Shown here piece after piece: positions 1 to 6,583 of a stretch of 10,636 nucleotides of DNA. Source of the DNA: a virus (lineage: Duplodnaviria; Heunggongvirae; Uroviricota; Caudoviricetes); IMG/VR virus record IMGVR_UViG_2534682295_000015, positions 1 to 10,636 of that record; one strand, written 5' to 3'. Numbering within the stretch: position 1 is the first letter of the stretch; each line of letters starts with the position of its first letter. Under the pieces are notes generated by a model. The model was given only the letters and a program-made list of their open reading frames with translations, had not been told where the DNA came from and did not search any database. The position numbers and the translations under genes were made by a program.

Positions 1-115
1 AAAGGCAGAGAAAGCAACTAAAGGAAGCTACATCGTAGGGCATACATCTGTTAACCAGCACGGCAATTTAACAGGAGTTTTTGTTTGCCAAAAATGGAAA
101 GGAGAACCCGGTGGC

Positions 116-868
116 GTGATTGCGGAATGTCATGTTAACTGCCTGATTGAATCAGATGATCAGGCTTATGCAAACGCTGAATTCATAGCAGAGGCTAACC
201 CGGCTACCGTGCTGGAACTGCTGGATGAACGGGAAAGAAACCAGCAATACATCAAACGCCGCGACCAGGAGAACGAGGAGATTGCGCTTACGGTTGGGAA
301 GCTGAGAGTTGAGCTGGGAGCAGCAGAGAACAACCTTATTGATAGTGAATGCCATGTTGCTGAACTGGAAGAAGCGCTACGCGATAAGCAGGCGTTACTT
401 GAAGCATCAGAGAAGCGCATAGCAGAACTGGAAGCCGAACTCGTAAGCCAAACTTACAAGTTGCCACACACGCAGTTTGAACAGATTGCTAACCTCTACG
501 AAATGCAATTTGATGACGGTCGCACTTGTGCCTTTCACACTGATGCGCAAAAGGCTGAGCAATGGCTTCAGGCGTGCGACGGAAACAGGGTTCAGGAATA
601 CGTTAAGCTGGAACGGTTGCAGAATGCGCTGTCTGGCAACTCTCCGGTAACTCCGGATGGTTGGATAAGTTGTAGTGAGCGAATGCCGGATACCAAAACA
701 GCCGTTCTTGTTGCCGTGGAGTTTGACAGGAAAGGTGACTGGCGAATGAAGTGGGCGACTTACATCCCGGGGCATCCTGACGCTAATGATGGGTGGATAA
801 TTCCTGGTGCGTCGTGGAAACCGTCACACTGGATGCCGCTACCAGAACCGCCGCAGGAGGTGAACTGA
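116..868 (+). CDS. Ead/Ea22-like prophage protein with C-terminal DUF551-like domain (possibly 5'-truncated by window edge)
   Basis: 250-codon ORF from GTG 116, with AAGGAG-like SD at about 99-104. The same frame is open back to position 2, so the true start may lie upstream of the window. N-terminal part carries the ...AEFIAEANPATVLELLDE... signature plus a coiled-coil-like E/L/A/K-rich stretch, as I recall for Ead/Ea22-like proteins. C-terminal ~70 aa (WISCSERMPDTKTAVLVAVEF...WMPLPEPP) fits the DUF551 pattern. Stop TGA 866-868 overlaps the next ATG. Confidence 0.6.
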   Translation: MIAECHVNCLIESDDQAYANAEFIAEANPATVLELLDERERNQQYIKRRDQENEEIALTVGKLRVELGAAENNLIDSECHVAELEEALRDKQALLEASEKRIAELEAELVSQTYKLPHTQFEQIANLYEMQFDDGRTCAFHTDAQKAEQWLQACDGNRVQEYVKLERLQNALSGNSPVTPDGWISCSERMPDTKTAVLVAVEFDRKGDWRMKWATYIPGHPDANDGWIIPGASWKPSHWMPLPEPPQEVN

Positions 869-1263
869 TGGAAAATGAAGGCGATAATATCATCACACTG
901 GTGCAGCCAAAGCGCGATGAAGAGAAGCTGCTGAACATTACAGTAACTGGCAGAAAAAACTACACACAACAGAGCTGTAAGCATCGGGCCATTGAGGTTC
1001 ATGAACAGGATCACGTTATCCTGTGCTTGCAGTGCGGATGTGTTGTGGACCCTTTTCAGTATGTTCTGCGGTGTGCGAACGATGGTGAGGCTGTGGTGAG
1101 AGAGATTAGACAGCTTCATAACAGACACGATCAGCTCCGAGAATCTGTTGCCAGCCTCGAGCGTGAAGAAAAGAACACCAAAGCACGGTTGCGGGCAGCA
1201 AGAACTGCAATACTGTATGCGGAAAATGACCTTAAAAATATTGAGCAGAAGGTGAATCAATGA
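868..1263 (+). CDS. Hypothetical phage protein, Cys-rich zinc-ribbon-like segment plus C-terminal coiled coil
   Basis: ATG 868 overlaps the upstream stop (ATGA) and is preceded by GGAGG at 856-860; the ORF-track start at 793 lies inside the upstream gene and is rejected. Product MENEGDNIITLVQPK... (131 aa) contains CKH-x14-CLQCGC and a charged helical tail. No family recognised. Confidence 0.55.
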   Translation: MENEGDNIITLVQPKRDEEKLLNITVTGRKNYTQQSCKHRAIEVHEQDHVILCLQCGCVVDPFQYVLRCANDGEAVVREIRQLHNRHDQLRESVASLEREEKNTKARLRAARTAILYAENDLKNIEQKVNQ

Positions 1264-1343
1264 CCTGGCCTGAAGCATTCGCAAATGTAGGAACAGTAAT
1301 GGCGGTGGTGCTGGTTGTGTATTCGATTTGTCGCTGGAGATAA
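1260..1343 (+). CDS. Possible small single-helix membrane peptide (27 aa), translationally coupled
   Basis: ATG 1260 overlaps the upstream TGA (ATGA). Product MTWPEAFANVGTVMAVVLVVYSICRWR has one hydrophobic helix. Very short, so coding status is uncertain. Confidence 0.3.
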   Translation: MTWPEAFANVGTVMAVVLVVYSICRWR

Positions 1344-1396
1344 AAACGGTTTGCGGGAAAAGGAGAGTTAAGTAGAATTGCTGCGGGTGCTTGAGG

Positions 1397-1432
1397 CTAT
1401 CTGCCTTGGGCATGAACACCAAAGGCAGATAG
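1397..1432. repeat. Imperfect inverted repeat (12-13 bp arms, ~10 nt spacer) at the left edge of the low-GC island
   Basis: CTATCTGCCTTGG (1397-1409) ... CCAAAGGCAGATAG (1419-1432) are near-perfect reverse complements (one extra T). No T-run follows on either strand, so it is not a canonical intrinsic terminator. Confidence 0.5.
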
Positions 1433-1633
1433 AGAAAAACCCACCCGACTATAAATCAAAGTGTATTACCCCCATTTGTTGGACGATGAAATGGGTTTAG
1501 TTAACTATGTCGGTATCGACATGACTAAAACAACCTTAAATTGCTCGATTAATAGACAAGTAGTTTTGAAAGATTAAATTTATGCGATCCGGTATTTTCA
1601 AGGGATAGCCTTTATGAGGTTATCTTATGGGGT

Positions 1634-1662
1634 TAAAACATCAAGAACAGTTGTGTTATAAT
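1634..1662 (+). promoter_or_regulatory. Candidate sigma70 promoter with extended -10 (TGTTATAAT) upstream of the C5-methyltransferase gene
   Basis: TGnTATAAT at 1654-1662, about 33 nt upstream of ATG 1695, with a weak -35-like TTAAAA around 1633-1638. Weak SD-like AAGAGA at 1676-1681. Sequence-based prediction only. Confidence 0.3.
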
Positions 1663-1694
1663 ACATAGAAACTAATAAGAGACGTTGCAACTAT

Positions 1695-2846
1695 ATGAAT
1701 GTAATAGATTTGTTTTCTGGCGTTGGAGGTCTAAGTCTTGGTGCTGCACGTGCTGGATTTGATGTTAAAATGGCAGTTGAAATTGATCAACATGCTATTA
1801 ATACTCACGCAATTAATTTTCCAAGAAGTTTGCACGTCCAAGAAGATGTTTCTTTACTAAATGCAGAAATAATTAAGGGTTTTTTTAAAAACGATATGCC
1901 CATAGATGGTATTATTGGCGGTCCTCCGTGCCAAGGATTTAGTTCAATAGGCAAGGGGAATCCTGATGATAGCAGGAATCAGCTTTACATGCATTTCTAC
2001 CGTTTAGTATCAGAATTACAGCCATTATTCTTTTTGGCAGAAAATGTTCCAGGTATTATGCAAGAGAAATATTCTGGCATTAGAAATAAAGCATTTAATT
2101 TGGTTAGCGGTGATTATGATATTCTTGATCCCATCAAGGTAAAAGCATCTGATTATGGTGCTCCAACTATTCGAACTAGATATTTTTTTATCGGTGTAAA
2201 AAAATCATTGAAGCTTGATATTTCAGATGAAGTATTTATGCCTAAAATGATTGATCCGGTTACTGTAAAAGATGCTTTGTATGGATTACCAGATATTATC
2301 GATGCCAATTGGCAATCAGACTCTGAGAGTTGGCGAACAATTAAAAAAGATCGAAAAGGGGGATTTTATGAAAAATTATGGGGGCAGATCCCTCGGAATG
2401 TTGGTGATACAGAATCGATCGCTAAGTTAAAAAATAATATCATATCTGGATGTACCGGAACATTACATAGCAAAATCGTCCAAGAGCGTTATGCTTCCTT
2501 ATCTTTTGGGGAAACTGATAAAATTTCAAGATCTACAAGATTAGATCCAAATGGTTTTTGCCCGACTTTAAGGGCGGGAACCGCTAGAGATAAAGGAAGC
2601 TTTCAAGCCGTCAGGCCGATCCACCCTTATCATCCAAGAGTGATTACACCAAGAGAAGCTGCTAGATTACAAGGCTTCCCTGATTGGTTTCGCTTTCATG
2701 TAACTAAATGGCATAGTTTCAGACAAATAGGAAATAGCGTGTCACCAATAGTTGCTGAATATATATTAAAGGGGCTGTACAATTTATTAAATAAAAGAGT
2801 ACAGCCCGAATATTTAAACCATAATTCTTTGGAAGTTAGGGTATAA
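1695..2846 (+). CDS. DNA (cytosine-5)-methyltransferase, Dcm-like
   Basis: 383-aa ORF with canonical C5-MTase motifs in canonical order: motif I DLFSGVGG (1707-1730), motif IV catalytic GGPPCQGFS (PCQ at 1926-1934), motif VI ENV (2040-2048), motif X-like RQIGNSVSP near the C-terminus. AT-rich codon usage matches the island. Confidence 0.9.
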   Translation: MNVIDLFSGVGGLSLGAARAGFDVKMAVEIDQHAINTHAINFPRSLHVQEDVSLLNAEIIKGFFKNDMPIDGIIGGPPCQGFSSIGKGNPDDSRNQLYMHFYRLVSELQPLFFLAENVPGIMQEKYSGIRNKAFNLVSGDYDILDPIKVKASDYGAPTIRTRYFFIGVKKSLKLDISDEVFMPKMIDPVTVKDALYGLPDIIDANWQSDSESWRTIKKDRKGGFYEKLWGQIPRNVGDTESIAKLKNNIISGCTGTLHSKIVQERYASLSFGETDKISRSTRLDPNGFCPTLRAGTARDKGSFQAVRPIHPYHPRVITPREAARLQGFPDWFRFHVTKWHSFRQIGNSVSPIVAEYILKGLYNLLNKRVQPEYLNHNSLEVRV

Positions 2847-3803
2847 CCTATAGTATTTATAATAGTTATCCCGTTCATTTTCGTTTAAAGAGAACTCTTC
2901 AGCGGCTGCCTGATATGCTTCTTTATCAGGCAGTTTACTATCTAAATTTATCTTTTCTTTAATTGTTAGTGTTGGTATTGCTATTTCTTGCACGTCTTCC
3001 CAATTTGTTGAATAAAATTGCCAGTTAGAAAGGTCGCATGCCTTAGATAACTCTATATATTCTTGTTCTGAGGAGAAAAAACCTGATATTGTCAACATGG
3101 TATGACTGCCATCATTATATTGATTTAAGGATAATGGGTAATACTGAATCTTATCCTTACGTCCTGAAAGACCACGTTCTATTGCTGATCTAAAAGCGTT
3201 TGTAATAATTCGTATTAAAAGAGCTTTAATCTTACGATCTGAAAGATCTGCATTTGATATCTGAAGATTAAAATCAAGATACTTTTTCCCAAGCAATGAT
3301 TTTAATGAATTAATAAAAGCTTCTTTAAAAATATCTAAACTTTCTCCAACTCTACGTTGGTAATAAGAACTAGGATTTATGGGGAAGGTGACCTTCAAAA
3401 TATCAAAAGAGCTTACTTTAGTACTTAGTAAGTGTATATCATCTAGATCCGTTTGTATTTTTTTCGGGGAGGCATAGTCTAACCATGTTATTGATGGTTT
3501 AGAAAAACTATAATCAAGAATAAAGTCATGAGCTGATATTAGCTTACAATCAATACAATTATAAGGCAAATTATATTTTTGTCTGATGTGAGTAGACTCT
3601 TGTTCTTCGAGAGAAATCATATCAGAAAGAGCGATACGATTATGCATGATTCTAAAATCTTCAAGCATCGGACCACCAAAACCTATATATGTATATTCTT
3701 GAATATTTAGTCTTTTGCTTAAGAGGTTTAGGCTTTCGAGAAAAATCTCTCTATCAATAGACTTATTATGCCTTAAGTGATAGGGAATGTATTGTCCAGA
3801 CAT
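2814..3803 (-). CDS. Hypothetical protein (~329 aa), downstream partner of the GHKL ATPase; function unknown
   Basis: Minus-strand ORF; ATG at 3803-3801 overlaps the upstream TGA (TGATG), with an in-frame GTG one codon further upstream (3806). GAGGTG SD-like sequence about 7 nt upstream. Product MSGQYIPYHLRHNKSIDREIFLESL...EYTYIGFGGPMLEDF... has no catalytic motif I can assign. Its 3' end overlaps the convergent MTase 3' end by 33 bp (2814-2846). Confidence 0.7.
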   Translation of the reverse strand: MSGQYIPYHLRHNKSIDREIFLESLNLLSKRLNIQEYTYIGFGGPMLEDFRIMHNRIALSDMISLEEQESTHIRQKYNLPYNCIDCKLISAHDFILDYSFSKPSITWLDYASPKKIQTDLDDIHLLSTKVSSFDILKVTFPINPSSYYQRRVGESLDIFKEAFINSLKSLLGKKYLDFNLQISNADLSDRKIKALLIRIITNAFRSAIERGLSGRKDKIQYYPLSLNQYNDGSHTMLTISGFFSSEQEYIELSKACDLSNWQFYSTNWEDVQEIAIPTLTIKEKINLDSKLPDKEAYQAAAEEFSLNENERDNYYKYYRLYPNFQRIMV

Positions 3804-5194
3804 CACTTCACCTCTTCAATCACCGTATCAAAGCATTGCATCCCCACATCAGAAGCGCTAGCATCTTCATGTCCAAAGAAATATTTAGATAAAATTTTAA
3901 CATCTTCTTTCTCTCTGGTGAAGATTATTCGTACAGTAGAGCTTTTTTTTACTGGGGTAGGCAGCTTAGGTGTATATCGCCACTCATTTTTGTTTCTATT
4001 AGGGTTGGACCAGTTATTTTTTTTATCTTCTGGAGTTGATTGTGGGGTAATTTCAAATAAAGATTGAGCTTCATGTGACTGAGCTGACTTAAGTAATTTT
4101 TTCCCTTCTTCAAGATGCTCACCTTTCCACTGATTGGTGAATCGAATAAAATGCATCATCCCTTCAATCATTTTATTTCGTACATCATTGTACAATGTAG
4201 AACTAAGATCGACACCTCGTTTCGTTGTTGTTATTGGTAATTTTTCTGGGTTTTTACTGGTAAAGCGAACAACCCCAGAAATTGCTATAAATTGGGTATG
4301 AAACCTTGGTACATTAGCAAAGCCCCAACCTGTGAGATGTGTCTTATCACAATATAGAACAACGCGGTCATTGCAAATGACAGTCCATCCAGCATCATCA
4401 GAACTCCTTTTTTCTAAAACATCATCATTGTCATCTTCTAAATTTTTATAGAAGCCAACAACTAAATCGATATCAACATCGTCTATTTTAGCTTTATATA
4501 TGTATGGTTCTATTTTAGAATGATCAGTTATGATGTTAATCGGATTATGTTCAACAACAACTCCATTTAATTCTATTTTAAATCCTTTTTGAATAATAAA
4601 TGACAATGAGTGTTTTATCTGTAAAAAGAGATCAGTAAGATATGTGCTCTCATTAAATTTTTGTGCCACATTAGAATGGAGTTTTTTTATCTCTATAGTT
4701 GTGCCTGTTGGATTTTTGTTATCATAGTCACTCTCGTGCATCGGTATTTTCCAACCATCACCATCGATCCAATCAGGTGTTATATCTACAGTGAATGCGC
4801 CATCGGGATTATTCGATTGTATTGAGCAATCTCTACCCATTTTAAAAATGGCTCTTTTCATACCAATACCATAGACGCCAACGGTGCCTTCATTTTCTTC
4901 TTCTTTTTGATGGGGTCGTCCCATTTTAAAAGCATATTCTCGGAAGCTTTTAGGGATACCTCCGCAATTGTCTTCTATAATAAAGACATCTTTATTAATC
5001 GTAAGTTTCGCATAAAATCCTTCATATGGTTTTGAAGTTTTTTTTGTGTCTTTTATTGTACGTAAAGCCCCATCGACGCAGTTATCAAGCAGATCAAGTA
5101 TGGCATCGTTTAAGTCGATATCTCGAGTTAGCATACTTACAAAAAATCTTTTACTAGGACTAAAGTCTGCTGTTGGAGTCGTGTTCTCAGTCAT
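3803..5194 (-). CDS. GHKL-superfamily (Bergerat-fold, MutL/MORC/Hsp90-like) ATPase, 463 aa
   Basis: N-terminal region carries the three ATP-binding motifs in canonical order: N-box-like DLLDNCVDGA (aa 34-43, nt 5066-5095), G1 box EDNCGGI (aa 74-80, nt 4955-4975), G2 box GVYGIGMK (aa 106-113, nt 4856-4879). The C-terminal ~300 aa are unassigned. ATG at 5194-5192. Confidence 0.8.
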   Translation of the reverse strand: MTENTTPTADFSPSKRFFVSMLTRDIDLNDAILDLLDNCVDGALRTIKDTKKTSKPYEGFYAKLTINKDVFIIEDNCGGIPKSFREYAFKMGRPHQKEEENEGTVGVYGIGMKRAIFKMGRDCSIQSNNPDGAFTVDITPDWIDGDGWKIPMHESDYDNKNPTGTTIEIKKLHSNVAQKFNESTYLTDLFLQIKHSLSFIIQKGFKIELNGVVVEHNPINIITDHSKIEPYIYKAKIDDVDIDLVVGFYKNLEDDNDDVLEKRSSDDAGWTVICNDRVVLYCDKTHLTGWGFANVPRFHTQFIAISGVVRFTSKNPEKLPITTTKRGVDLSSTLYNDVRNKMIEGMMHFIRFTNQWKGEHLEEGKKLLKSAQSHEAQSLFEITPQSTPEDKKNNWSNPNRNKNEWRYTPKLPTPVKKSSTVRIIFTREKEDVKILSKYFFGHEDASASDVGMQCFDTVIEEVK

Positions 5195-5246
5195 AATTTA
5201 CTCTCTATGTGTTTGGGAAAATAAATACCTTAAGTGCAAATTGTTG

Positions 5247-5274
5247 ATTTTAAACGCTTCGCATGCGAAGTCAA
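5247..5274 (-). promoter_or_regulatory. Candidate sigma70 promoter of the GHKL operon (TTGACT - 16 nt - TAAAAT on minus strand) with an embedded 14-bp palindrome
   Basis: Reverse complement of 5240-5280 reads ...cgTTGACTtcgcatgcgaagcgttTAAAATcaacaa... : -35 TTGACT (plus 5269-5274), 16-nt spacer, -10 TAAAAT (plus 5247-5252), about 50 nt upstream of ATG 5194. The perfect palindrome CTTCGCATGCGAAG (5257-5270) fills the spacer and overlaps the -35. Confidence 0.35.
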
Positions 5275-5368
5275 CGATGTTAAGAAAGAAAGTGCATGTG
5301 ATCTAACAGTATGTTTTTAAAAAAAGATTAGCTTTATGAGAATTCAGGACTGAATCCCGTGAGAGGAA

Positions 5369-5384
5369 AATAACATATGTTATT
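5369..5384. repeat. Perfect 16-bp palindrome AATAACATATGTTATT in the island's regulatory region
   Basis: Read directly: the sequence equals its own reverse complement. Followed by two TTGTTGCA direct repeats at 5383-5390 and 5410-5417. Confidence 0.6.
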
Positions 5385-5693
5385 GTTGCATTGCTGTGTT
5401 GTTTGGGATTTGTTGCACCATTCTGGCGTTGGTATATCTAGTTCGTTGTTCATTTTGTTAATTGTACAACAGGCAGACAACAGAGAGCTTTTAGCCTAGT
5501 TAGCTTACGAAATTAAACAACTAAGATTATCGGCGGGGAGTGGTCACCGCTACTCTTTGGCTAGGAGACTTCAACGCAACCGCACACAACCAGCTTCGGC
5601 GGGTTTTGTTTTTTCCTGGCATTCTGGTTTACAATTTGCGTGCTAGCTTGAACAACTGGCATCTGCTGCACTGCGCCATCGAGAGATTGAGAA

Positions 5694-6293
5694 ATGGCGC
5701 ATATACAACTGGTCAAACAAACTTCTTCTGGTTTACTTCTCCCGGCGACGCCGGAGAGTTGCGATTTTCTGCATCAAATCAAAATAGGTGAGTGGATACA
5801 CGCAGATTTTAAGCGTGTGCGTAACTACGCATTCCACAAGCGTTTTTTCAAACTCCTGCAACTGGGATTCGATTACTGGACTCCGGTCGGTGGGGCGATC
5901 ACGCCTCGCGAACGAGAACTGCTGTCTGGTTTCGTTGATTACCTGTGCGAATCAGTTGGTCGGGAACACACGCCAGCCCTGAGTGATGCCGCAGAGCAAT
6001 ACCTTAACACCGTTGCGACTCGTAGAACCCGGGATACGGCGTTGCTAAAGTCGTTTGAGGCTTTCCGCGAGTGGGTAACCATTCAGGCCGGATTTTACAC
6101 CGAGCATATTTATCCGGACGGTAGCCGTGGGCGTCGGGCAAAATCCATCGCTTTTGCGAATATGGACGAAGTCGAGTTTCAGCAGGTTTATAAATCTGTA
6201 CTGAATGTGCTGTGGAACTGGATTCTGTTCCGTAAATTCTCCTCTCAGGAGGAAGTTGAAAATGTGGCCGCACAACTACTGGAGTTTGCGTAA
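5694..6293 (+). CDS. Conserved lambdoid nin-region protein (199 aa), function unknown; resembles the DUF1367 family as I recall it
   Basis: ORF with ATG 5694, GC content and codon usage matching the phage backbone. Stop TAA 6291-6293 overlaps the next ATG (TAATG). Family assignment is from memory and unverified. Confidence 0.7.
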   Translation: MAHIQLVKQTSSGLLLPATPESCDFLHQIKIGEWIHADFKRVRNYAFHKRFFKLLQLGFDYWTPVGGAITPRERELLSGFVDYLCESVGREHTPALSDAAEQYLNTVATRRTRDTALLKSFEAFREWVTIQAGFYTEHIYPDGSRGRRAKSIAFANMDEVEFQQVYKSVLNVLWNWILFRKFSSQEEVENVAAQLLEFA

Positions 6294-6583
6294 TGGTGAA
6301 TTTACGTAAAGCGGCTAAAGGCCAGATATGCCAGATCAGAATCCCTGGCTACTGCAATCACAATCCCGAAACCTCTGTGCTGGCGCATTACAGGCTGGCG
6401 GGAACGTGCGGAACAGCGATAAAGCCACACGATATGCAGGCAGCGATTGCCTGTAACTCATGCCACGATTTAATCGACGGGAGAGTAAAAACCAGCGATT
6501 ACACCAAAGAAGAATTGCGCCTGATGCATGCAGAAGGTGTTTTTCGCACACAAGAGATCTGGAGAAAGGACGGTTATTTATGA
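6293..6583 (+). CDS. YbcO-like (DUF1364) putative zinc-binding nuclease of lambdoid phages
   Basis: 96-aa product with CQIRIPGYCNHNPETSVLAH...CNSCHDLIDG (CxxxxxxxC ... CxxCH), which resembles prophage YbcO-type proteins as I recall them. Coupled to both neighbours by overlapping stop/start codons. Confidence 0.6.
   Translation: MVNLRKAAKGQICQIRIPGYCNHNPETSVLAHYRLAGTCGTAIKPHDMQAAIACNSCHDLIDGRVKTSDYTKEELRLMHAEGVFRTQEIWRKDGYL

Follow-up and report, generated by a model that had tools for sequence, protein, structure and literature searches.

Convergent overlapping genes in a compact prophage cassette, with a terminator-like hairpin for each strand inside the opposing coding sequence

The three-gene cassette and its 33-bp overlap

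The DNA considered here is a viral stretch of 10,636 nucleotides (nt), positions 1 to 10,636 of IMG/VR record IMGVR_UViG_2534682295_000015, and this whole stretch is referred to below as the window. It carries part of a lambdoid prophage in which a cassette of three genes is situated between replication-module genes and a DUF1367 gene; a DNA methylase gene on one strand and a two-gene operon on the other run towards each other, and their coding sequences overlap by 33 base pairs (bp) at the 3' ends. The genes and the overlap are as follows.

1695-2846, plus strand: C5 DNA cytosine methyltransferase of the Dcm type, 383 amino acids (PF00145, TIGR00675, PADLOC MTase_II; WP_001100703 in the Prokaryotic Genome Annotation Pipeline, PGAP)
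2814-3803, minus strand: PF20553 protein (Methyltransf_35, 'putative O-methyltransferase'), 329 amino acids, with a class I S-adenosylmethionine-dependent methyltransferase fold
3803-5194, minus strand: MORC-like GHKL ATPase, 463 amino acids, an N-terminal GHKL ATP-binding domain followed by an S5-fold domain
2814-2846, both strands: coding overlap, encoding LYPNFQRIMV and a stop on the minus strand and LNHNSLEVRV and a stop on the plus strand

An earlier reading, made from the sequence alone, had described a methylase facing an operon, and both sides are genuine genes by family profile matches and by RefSeq annotation. The methylase matched PF00145 over residues 1-361 (E 2.6e-61; 208 bits, cut-off 22) and the NCBIfam model TIGR00675 with 156.9 bits (cut-off 100.65); the Pfam domain stops at residue 361, and the final 10 codons of the gene lie inside the overlap. 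The partner open reading frame (ORF) spans 2814-3806 on the minus strand, with an ATG at 3803 that gives the 329-residue product, and it matched positions 1-308 of the 309 in the PF20553 profile (300 bits, cut-off 27). Its C-terminal YYRxYPxFxR motif is conserved in 18 homologues, and a fold search placed it nearest to RsmD and Trm1, which are N-methyltransferases of RNA, so that an O-methyltransferase role is putative and comes from the family name; a GFGG motif and D109 mark its putative S-adenosylmethionine site. In the same kind of search the GHKL and S5-type module of the 463-residue protein was most like MORC3, SMCHD1 and MORC2. The stop of the ATPase gene and the start of the PF20553 gene overlap by 1 nt, which suggests translational coupling.

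The sequence-only reading had also labelled the minus-strand side an effector operon with a potentially toxic activity. Both labels are unproven. Pfam, NCBIfam, PADLOC and a fold search revealed no nuclease domain in the two minus-strand proteins, although the unmatched C-terminal regions could hide one. No family in PADLOC-DB 2.0 matched the GHKL or the PF20553 protein, and NCBIfam and PDB sequence searches returned no match for either. Moreover, no cognate restriction endonuclease of the kind that a type II restriction-modification system would have was detected beside the methylase. Literature searches on PF20553/Methyltransf_35 and on the three RefSeq protein accessions found no publication, and none that reports experimental work on the cassette.

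The positions common to the methylase and PF20553 ORFs are 2814-2846, and the two frames lie in exact antisense codon register. The TAA stop of the methylase (2844-2846) is the complement of PF20553 Leu320 (TTA), and the PF20553 stop (2814-2816) is the complement of methylase Leu374 (TTA). PGAP annotation of Escherichia coli E2863 in RefSeq contains the same two genes (WP_001100703, WP_000016656) with the same 33-bp overlap. As stop codons are set by the reading frame, the overlap cannot stem from a choice of start codon. In this antisense frame, stops occur only opposite TTA, CTA and TCA codons, and they are so sparse that an open run of 10 codons is expected by chance; if the methylase stop were lost, the next would be reached 5-55 codons further on and the methylase would be lengthened by that much. 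The 33-bp overlap is thus statistically unremarkable by itself, and it is its conservation at exactly 33 bp that exceeds chance.

Two hairpins embedded in opposing coding sequences

It had been claimed that the overlap leaves no room for an intergenic terminator. This is correct in that there is no intergenic DNA between the genes, but the coding sequences themselves contain two conserved, strand-specific, terminator-like hairpins, each lying beyond the stop codon of one gene and within the body of its partner.

2904-2935, plus strand: hairpin a, methylase side; core CUGCCUGAUA, 8-nt loop, UAUCAGGCAG (2906-2933), then UUUACUAUC; occupies PF20553 codons 290-300
2772-2807, minus strand: hairpin b, operon side; GGGCUGUAC, 18-nt loop, GUACAGCCC, then CUUUAAUAU; occupies methylase codons 360-371

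The comparison drew on a sample of 86 loci with relatives of the PF20553 gene and five more chosen for close homologues, 75 of them non-redundant (individual loci carry L numbers below). Ten cassettes in this sample have an overlap of exactly 33 bp; they occupy differing prophage or island positions, and their PF20553 proteins are 58-100% identical. Hairpin b starts 6 nt past the PF20553 stop and folds at -17.2 kcal/mol (z -5.0) in the window, and a strong hairpin is present at its site in all ten cassettes with a different sequence in each. In the alignment 91.7% of cells are paired and nine of the 12 pairs show compensatory changes, against 23-49% for slid controls, and RNAalifold predicted the structure independently. 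On the operon strand, G·U pairs outnumber A·C mismatches by 14 to 1.

Hairpin a lies about 58 nt past the methylase stop (-18.7 kcal/mol, z -4.5) and is likewise present in 10 of 10 cassettes and predicted by RNAalifold. Here 87% of aligned cells are paired and five of 14 pairs are compensatory (slid controls, 26-54%); the overall count on the methylase strand is 22 G·U to 3 A·C, and the hairpin is more stable on that strand in eight of the ten cassettes. Some of the compensations alter the host protein, as in L090, where Leu (CTG) replaces Gln298 (CAG) and the Pro292 codon that lies opposite is altered as well. The bias of G·U over A·C on the respective strands implies that each hairpin is kept on the transcript of the gene whose end lies immediately upstream; of the two, hairpin a has the weaker evidence.

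The PF20553 codons that hold hairpin a average -18.1 kcal/mol (z -4.8) in the ten 33-bp cassettes; at the same position z is near 0 in non-convergent gene orders and averages -1.0 in other convergent clades, with a hairpin in the clade whose genes overlap by 18 bp and in L015. Similarly, the methylase segment of hairpin b folds at -20.4 kcal/mol in the ten cassettes, with z at -4.7; in all other gene orders its z is about 0. A natural control is offered by L023, the closest relative that lacks an abutting methylase, whose PF20553 gene is followed instead by a second GHKL gene, with a spacer of 217 bp. Hairpin a is absent from L023 (-4.3 kcal/mol at the same PF20553 codons), and its spacer carries a canonical terminator with a 12-bp stem, TGTAACGGTCAG, loop TTAAAA, CTGACCGTTACA, followed by ATTTTT. 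Since the hairpins are limited to the clade with this gene order, they occur at points where a convergent unit has no intergenic DNA in which to end.

In their position both elements resemble terminators, being stable stem-loops shortly 3' of a stop codon on the transcribed strand. A single bidirectional terminator shared between the stops was not found at the junction, where there is no intergenic DNA and the two hairpins have opposite strand biases. Comparable clean hairpins in other convergent clades gave a mixed picture, with nothing convincing beyond the clade with the 18-bp overlap and L015, and no generalisation is made. In a clade with a 40-bp overlap (L006, L043, L045), a 10-bp inverted repeat, GGTAACAGC...GCTGTTACC, was seen about 20-70 nt past the PF20553 stop; it pairs the codons of methylase motif X (IGNSV) with codons some 12 residues downstream, and both arms are conserved, with no evidence of covariation.

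Gene order among related loci

Wherever the DNA is present, the GHKL gene stands directly upstream of the PF20553 gene on the same strand. A methylase gene generally lies close by, in positions that vary. In 26 of the 75 non-redundant loci it is convergent and directly abuts the PF20553 3' end; in 15 it lies upstream on the same strand as the operon, and in seven downstream on the same strand, at gaps of 89-203 bp. It is convergent with a second GHKL gene in between in two loci and divergent in one, there is no methylase within reach in nine, and 15 contigs are too short to judge. As the methylase shares the direction of the operon in 22 of the 51 loci that reveal its position, the system does not depend on the convergent layout. 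The abutting junctions are all tight, with spacings of -92 to +23 bp in 26 of 26 and overlaps in 20. Overlap length differs between clades, and the neighbour-joining tree is too poorly resolved to settle whether the convergent layout arose once or repeatedly.

Several loci depart from the three-gene plan. A second, longer GHKL protein (about 570-620 amino acids, HATPase_c_3) is paired with the methylase in L005, L007, L009, L023, L044, L047, L053 and L056, so that in some loci two different GHKL ATPases surround one Dcm gene (in L023 the second GHKL gene spans 5208-7034). In L002, L003, L004, L037, L046, L051 and L060 the GHKL-PF20553 pair occurs with no C5 methylase within 3-6 kb, L002-L004 being cyanobacterial, and the pair in such loci may act with another methylase or alone. 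Across phyla, identity to the window copy is 44-48% for the GHKL protein and 22-35% for the PF20553 protein; judged by these sequences, their rates of evolution are very unequal.

Is the coding overlap itself under selection?

Read on the minus strand, the overlap gives LYPNFQRIMV, with which the most conserved C-terminal motif of the PF20553 family ends; the motif is kept to the last residue: Y314, Y318 and P322 are invariant, and F324 and R326 nearly so. The methylase tails encoded by the other strand vary non-conservatively (LNHNSLEVRV, SYNDALEIRV, SDNYPLKVGV, LNHYPLEIRI and LNHDPLEIRI), and this variation originates in synonymous changes in the PF20553 gene. Within the overlap the PF20553 codons showed no detectable extra synonymous constraint, with a synonymous diversity of 0.50 where the whole gene averages 0.555 (P = 0.24), in a comparison of ten codons that has low power. 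Hence there is no sign of selection on the methylase side, where the tail varies freely and synonymous diversity is at the gene average. The overlap would appear, from these patterns, to be mostly passive, the frame of the methylase having extended across the antisense of a stretch that is conserved and free of stops. A further pattern, that methylases at non-overlapping junctions end 15-17 residues after motif X, was dropped, as their tails proved to be 14-44 residues long.

Origin and function of the overlap

The explanation that we favour, and hold to be the probable one with moderate confidence, is that the overlap is an inherited by-product of a compact mobile cassette in which each transcription unit has its 3'-end hairpin embedded in the coding sequence of the other. 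The methylase frame would pass through the 3' hairpin of the operon and on to the antisense of the C-terminal motif of its partner, until it met the first antisense stop, opposite Leu320 (TTA or CTA); the last ten methylase residues would then be a passive read-out of PF20553 codons. Two candidate promoters would drive convergent transcription.

1633-1662, plus strand: candidate sigma-70 promoter for the methylase; TTAAAA, 18-nt spacer, TATAAT (1657-1662) with a TG extended -10 (10/12 in a consensus scan)
5247-5274, minus strand (read from 5274 to 5247): candidate sigma-70 promoter of the GHKL-PF20553 operon; TTGACT, 16-nt spacer, TAAAAT (5247-5252) (10/12 in a consensus scan)

The TGnTAnAAT-like element of the methylase promoter is kept in the window, L087 and L088, L089 and L019 having weaker variants of the -10, and the TTGACT/TTGACA box of the operon promoter is kept, together with a TA-rich -10-like hexamer, in the window, L087, L088, L089 and L019. 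Under this scheme the 3' end of the methylase mRNA would fall just beyond 2935 and that of the operon mRNA just beyond 2772, and if the hairpins do mark 3' ends the two mRNAs would be complementary over about 170 nt (roughly 2770-2940). The expectation that transcripts overlap at this junction has therefore held up, since the predicted 3' ends fall beyond the overlap on both strands, which makes overlapping transcripts likely. What does not follow is unchecked head-on read-through, as each strand has a terminator-like hairpin embedded in the partner coding sequence, and transcription is probably not left unterminated at the junction. From their sequence and placement we infer that RNA 3' ends are formed or protected by the hairpins, which would be weak intrinsic terminators, perhaps with help from polymerase collisions; they may act as such terminators, as 3'-end protectors, or as stem-loops that position the collisions. 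By analogy with other systems, coupling of the two sides through an antisense RNA duplex or polymerase collision is possible.

Several observations weigh against this explanation. The U-tracts after both hairpins are weak, at 3-5 U (CUUUAAUAU, UUUACUAUC), limited as they are by partner codons, and in L019 and L088 no U-tract follows hairpin b at all. A consensus terminator scan of 1200-5800 called neither hairpin and nothing at the junction; the same scan missed the clear terminator of L023 (L023 5095-5135), and as it is insensitive to stem-loops followed by T-runs, its negative result does not amount to absence of a terminator. The misses probably arise because a G-T extension of the stem consumes the first T residues of the tail and because the 18-nt loop of hairpin b exceeds the limit of the scan. 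The core pairs of hairpin a, taken alone, give only 9 G·U to 3 A·C, and as the ten cassettes are related, shuffle controls overstate significance. Finally, Leu320 is TTA or CTA in 9 of 9 cassettes (related sequences) against a background of 51%, these being the sole leucine codons with a stop as complement; this is a weak hint that the position of the methylase stop is under some selection and that the overlap is perhaps not wholly neutral.

An alternative, in line with the sequence-only reading, regards the tail-to-tail overlap as a selected regulatory device. Convergent transcription or complementary 3' ends would tie the expression of the methylase to that of the operon, by collision of polymerases or by a duplex that RNase III cleaves, and modification would thereby be balanced against an activity that is potentially harmful. 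We consider this unlikely. It would account for the narrow range of the 26 facing junctions, where co-directional downstream methylases stand well apart from the operon, for the unvarying use of TTA or CTA at Leu320, and for hairpins placed beyond the overlap in such a way that the transcripts become complementary for about 170 nt; moreover, there are precedents in EcoRI, Eco29kI and bsrG/SR4 (PMC3874152) and in convergent E. coli pairs (bioRxiv 10.1101/2022.10.23.513370). Such a device is difficult to reconcile with the 22 of 51 informative loci that are co-directional, the two with an intervening gene and the nine without a nearby methylase, or with the variation in overlap length between clades and the lack of detectable extra constraint in the overlap. 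A dedicated hairpin for each strand suggests insulation over interference, the toxicity of the operon is unproven with no nuclease domain found, and the tight junctions may share one ancestral arrangement, given the poorly resolved tree. A related proposal, which strikes us as rather improbable, is that it is the abutment that is the selected design, the buried terminators forcing 3' ends that are complementary for some 170 nt and serve as a ratio controller or toggle. By way of the duplex or of polymerase collisions, the toggle, which we regard as equally doubtful, would set DNA modification against the activity of the MORC-like and PF20553 proteins, in a conflict system carried by the prophage; compatible with it are the junctions of -92 to +23 bp at all 26 convergent loci and hairpins that lie outside the overlap.

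The hairpins might, on the other hand, not be 3'-end elements at all: they could be sites at which RNase III or RNase E processes the RNA, structures that pause translation or have a regulatory role, RNA motifs bound by proteins, or inverted repeats at the DNA level with a use in recombination or cassette mobility. This is distinctly unlikely, in spite of the weak or missing U-tracts in some cassettes and the fact that hairpin b folds on the methylase strand too, just before the methylase stop (-17.6 kcal/mol; mean z -3.3). Covariation keeps the pairing and not the sequence, which speaks against a sequence-specific protein or recombination site; the G·U versus A·C bias assigns each hairpin to the RNA of the gene that ends just upstream; each is found only where a convergent gene needs a 3' end; and the relative that has a spacer, L023, uses a canonical terminator. 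Least credible, to the point of being close to negligible, is the view that the overlap is an artefact, with one of the 3' ends made unreal by a sequencing frameshift, a decayed pseudogene or a chance ORF. In its favour there is only the general point that long annotated overlaps are often errors, and it is refuted by full-length Pfam matches for both ORFs, by an identical cassette in many complete genomes, and by the same overlap in ten diverged cassettes from varied hosts and contexts, with stops that are independent of annotation choices. The by-product of a compact cassette with embedded hairpins thus remains the explanation that we prefer.

Relation to known systems

An association of MORC and paraMORC GHKL ATPases with DNA methylases is known from predicted restriction-modification systems (Iyer, Abhiman & Aravind 2008, PMC2292703). 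The present cassette is similar in that its 463-residue protein of GHKL and S5 type is tied to a C5 methylase in most loci, on mobile DNA; it differs in that no helicase, Vsr, HNH or restriction-fold nuclease was detected in it, and in its invariable partner, a PF20553 protein with a Rossmann methyltransferase fold. Modules composed of Dcm and HATPase_c_3 (HEF_HK) plus Response_reg_2 have also been described (Bellieny-Rabelo et al. 2021, PMC8011034), and here too a C5 methylase stands beside a paraMORC-like GHKL gene and a small conserved partner. Those modules involve PF19191 and PF19192, whereas the partner in the cassette is PF20553 and its GHKL protein lacks HEF_HK or a second HATPase_c domain.

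With regard to the junction, convergent E. coli gene pairs have been found to end at polymerase collisions positioned by stem-loops or at bidirectional terminators (Wang, Watters, Ju & Liu 2022, bioRxiv 10.1101/2022.10.23.513370). The cassette shares with them the convergent genes, the RNA stem-loops at the boundary and the expected 3' overlap of transcripts. In the E. coli pairs one shared element lies between the genes, whereas the cassette has two hairpins, each specific to one strand, that are separated by about 100 nt and are located within the coding sequences of the facing genes. Antisense control is known in restriction-modification systems and in type I toxin-antitoxin systems with 3' overlaps, as in EcoRI Rna0, Eco29kI and bsrG/SR4 (Mruk & Kobayashi 2014, PMC3874152). 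These have in common with the cassette complementary RNAs from a locus that pairs a protective with a potentially harmful function, and a predicted 3' overlap of about 100-200 nt; there, antisense RNAs and phenotypes have been demonstrated, whereas in the cassette both RNAs would be full mRNAs, and regulation and harm by the operon are hypothetical.

Genomic setting and other features of the prophage

The cassette (1400-5500) is an island of low GC content, 0.29-0.41 against about 0.50 in the flanks, and at least 80% of this island is present in 172 of the 5,426 E. coli genomes that are complete; O157 and O111 strains are among the carriers, O157:H7 PA20 and O111 RM9322 being examples. No DNA-level copy of the cassette was found in the phage collection searched, and Rfam gave no family match inside it. 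Homologous cassettes were seen at varied prophage sites: with a gene of the lambda P family on one side and DinI, RusA or DUF1367 genes on the other, or between antiterminator Q and holin. A chromosomal site beside an ImuB/UmuC-type polymerase gene was seen too. Going by these sequence contexts, the three-gene cassette behaves as a mobile unit.

Further downstream the window contains a second, unrelated DNA methyltransferase gene, two tRNA genes (predicted by ARAGORN) and two small RNA genes with Rfam matches above the gathering score.

7707-8765, plus strand: DNA methyltransferase ORF, 352 amino acids, just upstream of the tRNA genes (8806-9038); its translation has a DPPY motif, typical of N6/N4 amino-methyltransferases
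8806-8881, plus strand: tRNA-Met (CAT)
8962-9038, plus strand: tRNA-Arg (TCT)
9148-9356, plus strand: small RNA STnc100 (175 bits)
9358-9417, minus strand: AgvB, an anti-GcvB small RNA (56.6 bits, cut-off 56)

STnc100 and AgvB are back to back, downstream of the prophage tRNAs. PGAP annotation of E2863 has tRNA-Ile and tRNA-Arg genes downstream of the cassette; if the tRNA with the CAT anticodon in the window corresponds to this tRNA-Ile, it may be a lysidine-modified tRNA of the Ile2 type.

Implications

The overlap alone matters little, as it is visible in RefSeq and convergent overlaps are a known phenomenon. The arrangement likewise belongs to a known kind, that of convergent overlapping genes with intragenic terminators in a cassette that resembles restriction-modification systems; its new details are that the hairpins are embedded, strand-specific and covarying, and that the tail-to-tail junctions of the family are tight throughout. 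The hairpins provide an example of terminator-like structures kept by compensatory changes within coding sequence, including amino-acid replacements in the host gene, and they suggest how very compact mobile cassettes can end transcription without intergenic DNA. The module to which they belong, a MORC-like GHKL ATPase and a PF20553 protein, usually with a Dcm methylase, is very widespread (more than 5,430 GHKL relatives) and uncharacterised, and if the cassette is a defence or addiction system, its regulation would matter.

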